In this document: positions 584 through 802 of the stretch, in pieces
Layout: each line of letters starts with the position of its first letter
How positions within the stretch are numbered: the stretch's first letter is position 1
IMG/VR virus record: IMGVR_UViG_2671180439_000006
Direction: 5' to 3' (one strand)
DNA: 2,535 bases
Source: a virus
Lineage: Duplodnaviria > Heunggongvirae > Uroviricota > Caudoviricetes
Notes under the pieces: model-generated
Seen by the model: the letters and a program-made list of their open reading frames with translations, nothing else
Databases searched by the model: none
Told to the model about the DNA's origin: nothing
Position numbers and translations under genes: made by a program

Positions 584-695
584 ATTCACTATCGCCACTT
601 TTATTGGCGATGAAAAGATGTTTCGTGAAGCCGTCGACGCTTATAAAAAATGTATATTAATGCTGAAACTGAGATCAAGCAAAAGCATTCACTAA
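552..695 (+). CDS. kil: Kil, 47 aa, host-killing / cell-division (FtsZ) inhibitor of the lambda pL operon; overlaps the cIII 3' end by 32 nt in another frame
   Basis: Translation [47 protein letters not shown] matches lambda Kil except for two residues near the C-terminus. AGGAG at 538-542 lies 9 nt before the ATG at 552. The track ORF 426-695 is this frame extended upstream to an ATG inside cIII. Confidence 0.88.
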
Positions 696-802
696 CCCCC
701 TTTCCTGTTTTCCTAATCAGCCTGGCATTTCGCGGGCGCTATTTTCACAGCCATTTTCAGGAGTTCAGCCATGAACGCTTATTACATTCAGGATCGTCTT
801 GA
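650..802 (+). other. Frameshifted remnant of the long GamL N-terminal extension (50-codon [53 protein letters not shown]); out of frame with gam
   Basis: The ATG at 650 is 121 nt (not a multiple of 3) upstream of the gam ATG at 771. The first ~33 codons resemble the lambda GamL N-terminus, then the frame diverges at the T-run 754-757 and stops at TGA 800-802. Confidence 0.45.
759..763 (+). promoter_or_regulatory. Shine-Dalgarno sequence for the gam (GamS-type) start (AGGAG, 7 nt before the ATG at 771)
   Basis: AGGAG at 759-763. Confidence 0.8.

Follow-up and report, generated by a model that had tools for sequence, protein, structure and literature searches.

A common natural allele of the lambda-type gam leader in which only the GamS-type start is open

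The stretch of viral DNA analysed here, referred to as the window, is 2535 bases long, and the numbering used throughout is that of this whole stretch. It carries the end of an insertion sequence followed by the genes cIII, kil, gam, bet and exo, as listed below:

1-294, plus strand: right end of IS1 (3' part of insB, with an ORF at 13-279, and the terminal inverted repeat), adjoining the cIII leader
406-464: cIII thermoregulator (Rfam Lambda_thermo, 88.5 bits), a match that a lambda-type cIII should give
419-583: cIII
552-695, plus strand: kil, 47 aa (Pfam Lambda_Kil, E=2e-20; PGAP annotation in E. coli PCN061)
771-1076, plus strand: gam, of the GamS type
1073-1858, plus strand: bet (ORF list and PCN061 annotation), whose ATG overlaps the new gam stop (ATGA)
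1855-2535: exo

The order kil-gam-bet-exo places gam within the Red module, immediately before bet and exo. The IS1 segment corresponds to an IS1A transposase in the PCN061 annotation and to Pfam DDE_Tnp_IS1 on the contig carrying the window, and the matches devoid of IS1 begin at position 295. The toxic kil gene lies downstream of both IS1 and a tL2b-like hairpin (370-389). The entire window occurs exactly in the NCBI draft GCA_001268805.1 (contig CXYN01000016.1) and, in a base-by-base comparison with two complete genomes, those of PCN061 and of an O9:H10 strain, every base is the same except position 1065; further complete genomes match at 99.8-100%. In the PCN061 chromosome, the segment belongs to a prophage remnant at tRNA-Arg/fimZ-cusS, presumably the site occupied by prophage DLP12 in K-12, where only IS1A, cIII-kil-gam-bet-exo and a truncated integrase are left. 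This remnant (locus L122, 11582-15057) has lost pL and N, while its five ORFs have all remained intact. The allele is shared by a sister strain, where it lies inside a larger defective prophage.

Two isoforms of Gam are stated to exist, and structural work uses the short one, GamS, which corresponds to residues 41-138 (PMC5218532). In lambda, GamL has 138 aa and GamS 98 aa, and the annotation of NC_001416 calls the long form (gam 32816..33232, 138 aa), which overlaps kil (33187..33330), the ATG that starts GamL corresponding to a site within the last 46 nt of kil. The window is similar to lambda in its order cIII-kil-gam-bet-exo, in the AGGAG-ATG start of gam and in having an upstream ATG inside kil. 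The features that bear on the Gam form encoded by the window are the following:

650-802, plus strand: upstream ORF of 50 aa, starting at the GamL-homologous ATG, out of frame with gam and ending 30 nt inside it
696-770, plus strand: kil-gam spacer, that is, the gam leader, best read as non-coding
714-716, plus strand: TAA, the nearest stop in the gam frame on the 5' side of ATG771
752-757, plus strand: haplotype marker CATTTT (TATTT in lambda), made of the T4 run at 754-757 and the linked C752
759-763, plus strand: AGGAG Shine-Dalgarno, read directly, 7 nt before ATG771
1065, plus strand: C instead of T in gam codon 99 (TAA to CAA, stop loss), relative to the complete genomes of PCN061 and the O9:H10 strain

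As claimed in the original prediction, which was made from the sequence before any comparison, ATG650 lies 121 nt upstream of ATG771 (771-650) in the ORF list, and because of this spacing the two are out of frame. The window reads C751, C752, A753, four T at 754-757, C758, AGGAG at 759-763 and ATG at 771. In the pairwise alignment, its gcCAttttcagg faces gcTA-tttcagg in lambda NC_001416, which amounts to a T-run indel of 1 nt with a C/T substitution next to it. The lambda reference has three T (T3), with the upstream ATG 120 nt away and in frame, so that the T3 run given for lambda in the original prediction was correct, and lambda J02459, read directly, likewise has the 120-nt spacing. The ORF list and the lambda alignment also agree with the predicted course of the upstream ORF, which tracks the GamL N-terminus, diverges at 754-757 and stops at 800-802; it has no Pfam match. 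In the gam frame, no ATG, GTG or TTG is present in the 54 open nucleotides upstream of ATG771. With this frame shut by TAA714-716 and devoid of an upstream start, the window therefore encodes no long Gam: no start codon lies in frame 40 codons before GamS Met1, nor is the intervening frame open. The ATG homologous to lambda Met41 is present at 771, it is preceded by the AGGAG at 759-763, and its product is of the GamS type, with 101 aa instead of 98 owing to the stop-codon change at 1065. The ORF list, the alignment and the frame scan thus all confirm that the GamL-type ORF is closed and that the GamS-type start at ATG771 is the only one left.

Residues 1-98 of the window Gam are those of the commonest GamS allele, which is shared unchanged by the window and by both the T3 and T4 groups, and they differ from lambda GamS at two positions (L22I and S60A). 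They align with positions 1-98 of the 98 in Pfam Gam PF06064 (Host-nuclease inhibitor protein Gam; E=3.9e-65, 216.7 bits against a cut-off of 25), and 98/98 residues align with PDB 5MBV and 2UUZ (E=3e-61), which places the protein close to RecBCD-bound GamS. The Pfam model covers exactly the 98 GamS positions and the solved structures are those of GamS; the window protein matches both this full model and the crystallised or cryo-EM GamS (PDB 2UUZ, 2UV1 and 5MBV), with a 3-residue C-terminal tail beyond the model. Given its near-identity to lambda GamS, the window Gam would be expected to inhibit RecBCD as a dimeric DNA mimic. The tail arises because the stop codon is changed at 1065: Gam has 101 aa and ends in QNG (…SEVQNG), the new stop TGA being located at 1074-1076. 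No exact match to this variant was obtained in 5426 complete E. coli genomes and it is absent from 110 other lambda-like loci. The exact 101-aa protein is nevertheless found on 15 contigs from independent samples, and the stop loss is therefore considered as a real variant of this lineage.

The distribution of the T-run allele was evaluated with a gapped pattern scan of IMG/VR, which gave at least 120 loci. Among the loci listed, 86 combine C with T4, 33 combine T with T3, and 1 is of another kind. The linkage between SNP and run length is complete in 122 sequences (C+T4 in 87, T+T3 in 34 and one C+TATTT), among which neither C+T3 nor T+T4 was encountered. Across the 5426 complete E. coli genomes, 1250 records have an exact copy of the T4 leader (82 nt) as their best match, against 744 for an exact copy of the T3 leader (81 nt). 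C+T4 is thus the majority state, the more frequent haplotype. The perfect linkage with the flanking SNP points to an old, stable haplotype marker rather than to recurrent slippage; recurrent homopolymer slippage or phase variation was rejected, since there are just two run lengths, each perfectly SNP-linked.

The same allele is found in known phages. The sequences of 933W (AF125520) and Stx2 phage 86 (Stx2-86, NC_008464), read directly, show CATTTT and the 121-nt spacing as in the window, and both carry a 98-aa gam annotation, a size which PGAP calls as well. For other phages of the collection the run length is indicated by the length of the match, 171 nt for T4 and 170 nt for T3. Matches of 171 nt were obtained with 933W, phi24B, P27, P32, Stx2-86, ST2-8624 and ev207, and those of 170 nt with lambda, 434, HK630, VT2-Sakai, Stx2 II, SfI and O276, while T4 is indicated for BP-4795 by the match length with a 701-base query. 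Judging by these sequences, the T4 allele occurs in viable phages, namely 933W, Stx2-86, phi24B and BP-4795. In contrast to 933W and Stx2-86, the lineage of the window sits in a degraded prophage remnant and has three more SNPs in 640-810 (651 G>T, 737 A>C, and C instead of A at 700) in addition to the 1065 stop loss. Two of them, 651 G>T (Kil W34C, and D2Y in the upstream ORF) and 737 A>C, are lineage-specific: they are shared with PCN061 and related strains and are absent from 109 IMG/VR loci. The T4 leader being the commoner haplotype, identical in PCN061, the O9:H10 strain and others, the initial view of a lesion of this particular element could not be maintained. The feature is real but ordinary, a frequent natural allele that thousands of public genomes contain and that their annotation already reflects.

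The extent of the GamL frame itself was assessed in 111 lambda-like gam loci, among them lambda and the window, whose flanks were long enough for this purpose. The in-frame ATG at -120, and hence an open GamL frame, is present in 27 of them, and in 32 kil is combined with T4, which puts this ATG out of frame. In 50 others the GamL ATG is absent because an unrelated gene stands in the place of kil. The mosaic joint then falls exactly at the stop codon of the kil-replacing gene, about 77 nt before gam (for instance in L012, L022, L050 and L026), and the gam leader downstream of it is conserved. In these 111 loci, kil or its replacement may precede T4, and T3 is nearly always accompanied by kil. 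Of the 33 kil+T4 loci, the window included, 31 have the upstream ORF at its full 50 aa and two have it reduced to 21 aa. The C run that directly follows the kil stop (696-701 in the window) has 4, 5 or 6 bases across loci (related: L030, L038, L060 and L097). In L060 and L097, T4 is accompanied by a C run one base shorter, which restores the 120-nt spacing, the ORF being still broken (21 aa).

Outside the lambda-like set, homologues of 96-98 aa were found in Shigella phage 75/02 Stx (85% identity) and Cronobacter phage phiES15 (37%) and, at 70-76% identity, in Citrobacter, Klebsiella, Raoultella, Pseudescherichia, Escherichia sp. and an unclassified Enterobacteriaceae genome. These homologues of 37-85% identity start at the Met equivalent to GamS Met1, with no usable in-frame start upstream of it in any of them. 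A Gam type from E. coli and Shigella chromosomes (83% identity) apparently uses a GTG located 8 codons further upstream as its start, and the few N-terminal residues gained in this way are unrelated to GamL. The gam of phage Dewey (locus L125, 572-997) is annotated with 141 aa, but probably reflects an over-extended start call, since the N-terminal addition bears no relation to lambda GamL and shares DNA with the preceding CDS. None of the divergent Gam homologues checked has a GamL-homologous extension. Taken together, these comparisons indicate that the GamL frame, confined to a lambda-type subgroup that carries kil upstream of gam, has the T3 run and lacks any further indel, is not conserved across the Gam family. 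No paper spelling out this non-conservation was found in the literature searched.

Regarding the start signals, ATG771 has AGGAG in front of it, whereas no Shine-Dalgarno-like sequence precedes ATG650 (gtcgacgcttataaaaaATG). CAGGAG is kept in several divergent homologues (Dewey, phiES15, L150, L152, L153 and L154), with variants of it in three others. As the indel of the T run is located just 5' of the Shine-Dalgarno and leaves its spacing to the ATG unchanged, GamS expression should be unaffected. In the leader alignment, 34 of 85 columns are polymorphic and the length varies at the C run and at the T run, with a mosaic joint at the 5' end of the leader. The annotation of Stx2-86 labels an ORF of identical length, 50 aa, as 'gam alternate', and 696-770 is therefore taken as a non-coding leader. 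Against this reading, the degree of conservation of the leader is rather high for non-coding DNA. A codon-position test in the 27 loci with an open GamL frame had 8 variable sites only, 4 of which are at third positions, and rough counts of synonymous and non-synonymous changes in GamS were noisy as well. The fold of the leader RNA is unexceptional (minimum free energy z = -1.28), and a structured RNA was not supported as a candidate, Rfam giving only the cIII thermoregulator at 406-464. A weak terminator-like hairpin lies at 720-737 (GCCTGGCATTTCGCGGGC followed by a T-rich tail), with 2 such hairpins found against 1.0 expected by chance. It may represent a lambda tL2 site, tL2c being suspected, an identity for which the sequence records and literature searched gave no confirmation.

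In the light of these data, 650-802 very probably represents the 3' end of kil together with the leader of the common CATTTT haplotype, the GamL extension being absent, Gam being made only from ATG771 and the indel being old. In the CATTTT haplotype, the spacer from the ATG inside kil to the start of gam measures 121 nt instead of 120, and the 40-codon N-terminal extension called GamL in the lambda annotation therefore does not exist. Initiation would take place only at ATG771, behind the AGGAG at 759-763, and would yield the conserved GamS-type RecBCD inhibitor, while the T3/T4 difference would be an old, stably inherited indel within a stretch that behaves as a non-coding leader. As far as can be judged from the sequence, ATG771 is likely the start actually used and the 50-aa ORF is likely functionless.

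Among the alternatives, a true loss, in which GamL was an ancestral functional isoform that the lineage leading to the haplotype of 933W and the window lost when its T run gained one nucleotide, this haplotype surviving on GamS alone, is unlikely. GamL is active when expressed (PMC5218532), and in T4 loci one can still make out the upstream ATG and most of the 40 codons, yet the extension occurs in no divergent homologue checked. Outgroup leaders often carry ATTTCAGGAG with T3, and several divergent ones read AAATTTCAGGAG, with T3 next to the Shine-Dalgarno, which is compatible with T3 as the older state. Since the upstream parts of these leaders are unalignable, such a resemblance is uninformative on the spacing. 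Besides, the T3 alleles of GamS are less diverse than the T4 alleles and lie within their range (pairwise diversity of 0.0145 in T3 versus 0.0258 in T4, the between-group value of 0.0208 being lower than that within T4), which speaks against a loss in the T4 lineage, as does the occurrence of T4 with both kinds of upstream gene when T3 is almost restricted to kil. These diversity figures and the two upstream contexts of T4 even suggested that T3 and the open GamL frame form a younger sub-lineage. Recombination is rife, however, and weighs against this last deduction, as does the T3 of several outgroup leaders. Of the single-base insertion initially put forward, the 1-nt indel relative to the T3 of lambda therefore stands but not its direction, as outgroup leaders are alignable only near the Shine-Dalgarno. 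Likewise, the term "disabled", in the sense of a derived loss, was not borne out, the GamL ORF being a minority state (27/111) absent from divergent homologues, and "never enabled" is at least as likely as "disabled".

A maintained switch, by which lambda-type phages make GamL plus GamS and 933W-type phages translate the 50-aa ORF as a uORF setting the GamS level, would be a further explanation of the T3/T4 dimorphism, by which the two types would differ in how, or how strongly, RecBCD is disarmed; we regard it as very improbable. Very improbable too is the proposal that T4 phages produce a long Gam by +1 frameshifting at CAU UUU C, or that their 50-aa ORF is a regulatory uORF tuning GamS initiation. 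The UUU-C sequence does let tRNA-Phe re-pair in the +1 frame, but a frameshift stimulator is lacking: the A-site codon CAG is common, there is neither a stop nor a rare codon, and no Shine-Dalgarno-like element is found 3 nt upstream, so that, on reading the sequence, CAU UUU CAG preceded by cacagcca does not correspond to a programmed +1 frameshift of the prfB type. The uORF version can invoke the full 50-aa length kept in 31/33 kil+T4 loci with an end 30 nt inside gam, but the ORF is broken at 21 aa in two loci. Both versions are further opposed by ATG650 having no Shine-Dalgarno, by an unexceptional RNA structure without any Rfam match, and by about half of the loci having no such ATG yet the same leader and the same GamS.

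Finally, homopolymer errors do occur with some sequencing chemistries, and the extra T had been considered as a possible error of sequencing or assembly in this contig, an explanation of negligible probability given that an NCBI draft and three Logan assemblies of independent runs contain an exact copy of positions 641-1100, that independent complete genomes have the same sequence, that the T4 leader is identical in 933W and Stx2-86, and that 122 sequences show perfect linkage of the run length to the C/T SNP beside it.

Returning to the reading of the CATTTT stretch as a non-coding leader, this natural variation argues that the 98-residue Gam is the conserved and sufficient product, and that GamL, with its 138 residues in the lambda reference, is a lineage-specific ORF. 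The suggestion that the element could bear on which Gam form is needed was partly sustained: the data do support GamS as the conserved product, but with modest weight, because GamS is already the form employed for structures and activity tests. GamS is also the form in use in biochemistry and in commercial reagents. As many records extend or split gam inconsistently, the comparison is useful for annotation, and also for choosing a Gam construct, and it opens no new question. Concerning lambda itself, Gam from lambda-infected cells was reportedly described by Karu et al. in 1975 as having subunits of about 16.5 kDa, which would fit GamL. When expressed from plasmids, GamL and GamS are both active, GamL being slightly more effective in one assay (PMC5218532), and the extension is therefore not necessarily meaningless in lambda. 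The 'GamL' of phi80, a Gam-like anti-RecBCD protein (PMC12315714), shares the name and the RecBCD target, but belongs to another sequence type and has no relationship with the long form of lambda Gam.

A last observation concerns loci L130-L140, in which a lambda-identical gam is found in assemblies labelled Shewanella, Pseudomonas, Neobacillus, Oceanobacillus, Kitasatospora, Chromatium and others. Some of these copies are located on contigs of about 48.4 kb with about 1x coverage, and the lambda-identical gam of these loci almost certainly reflects contamination of the assemblies by lambda DNA.
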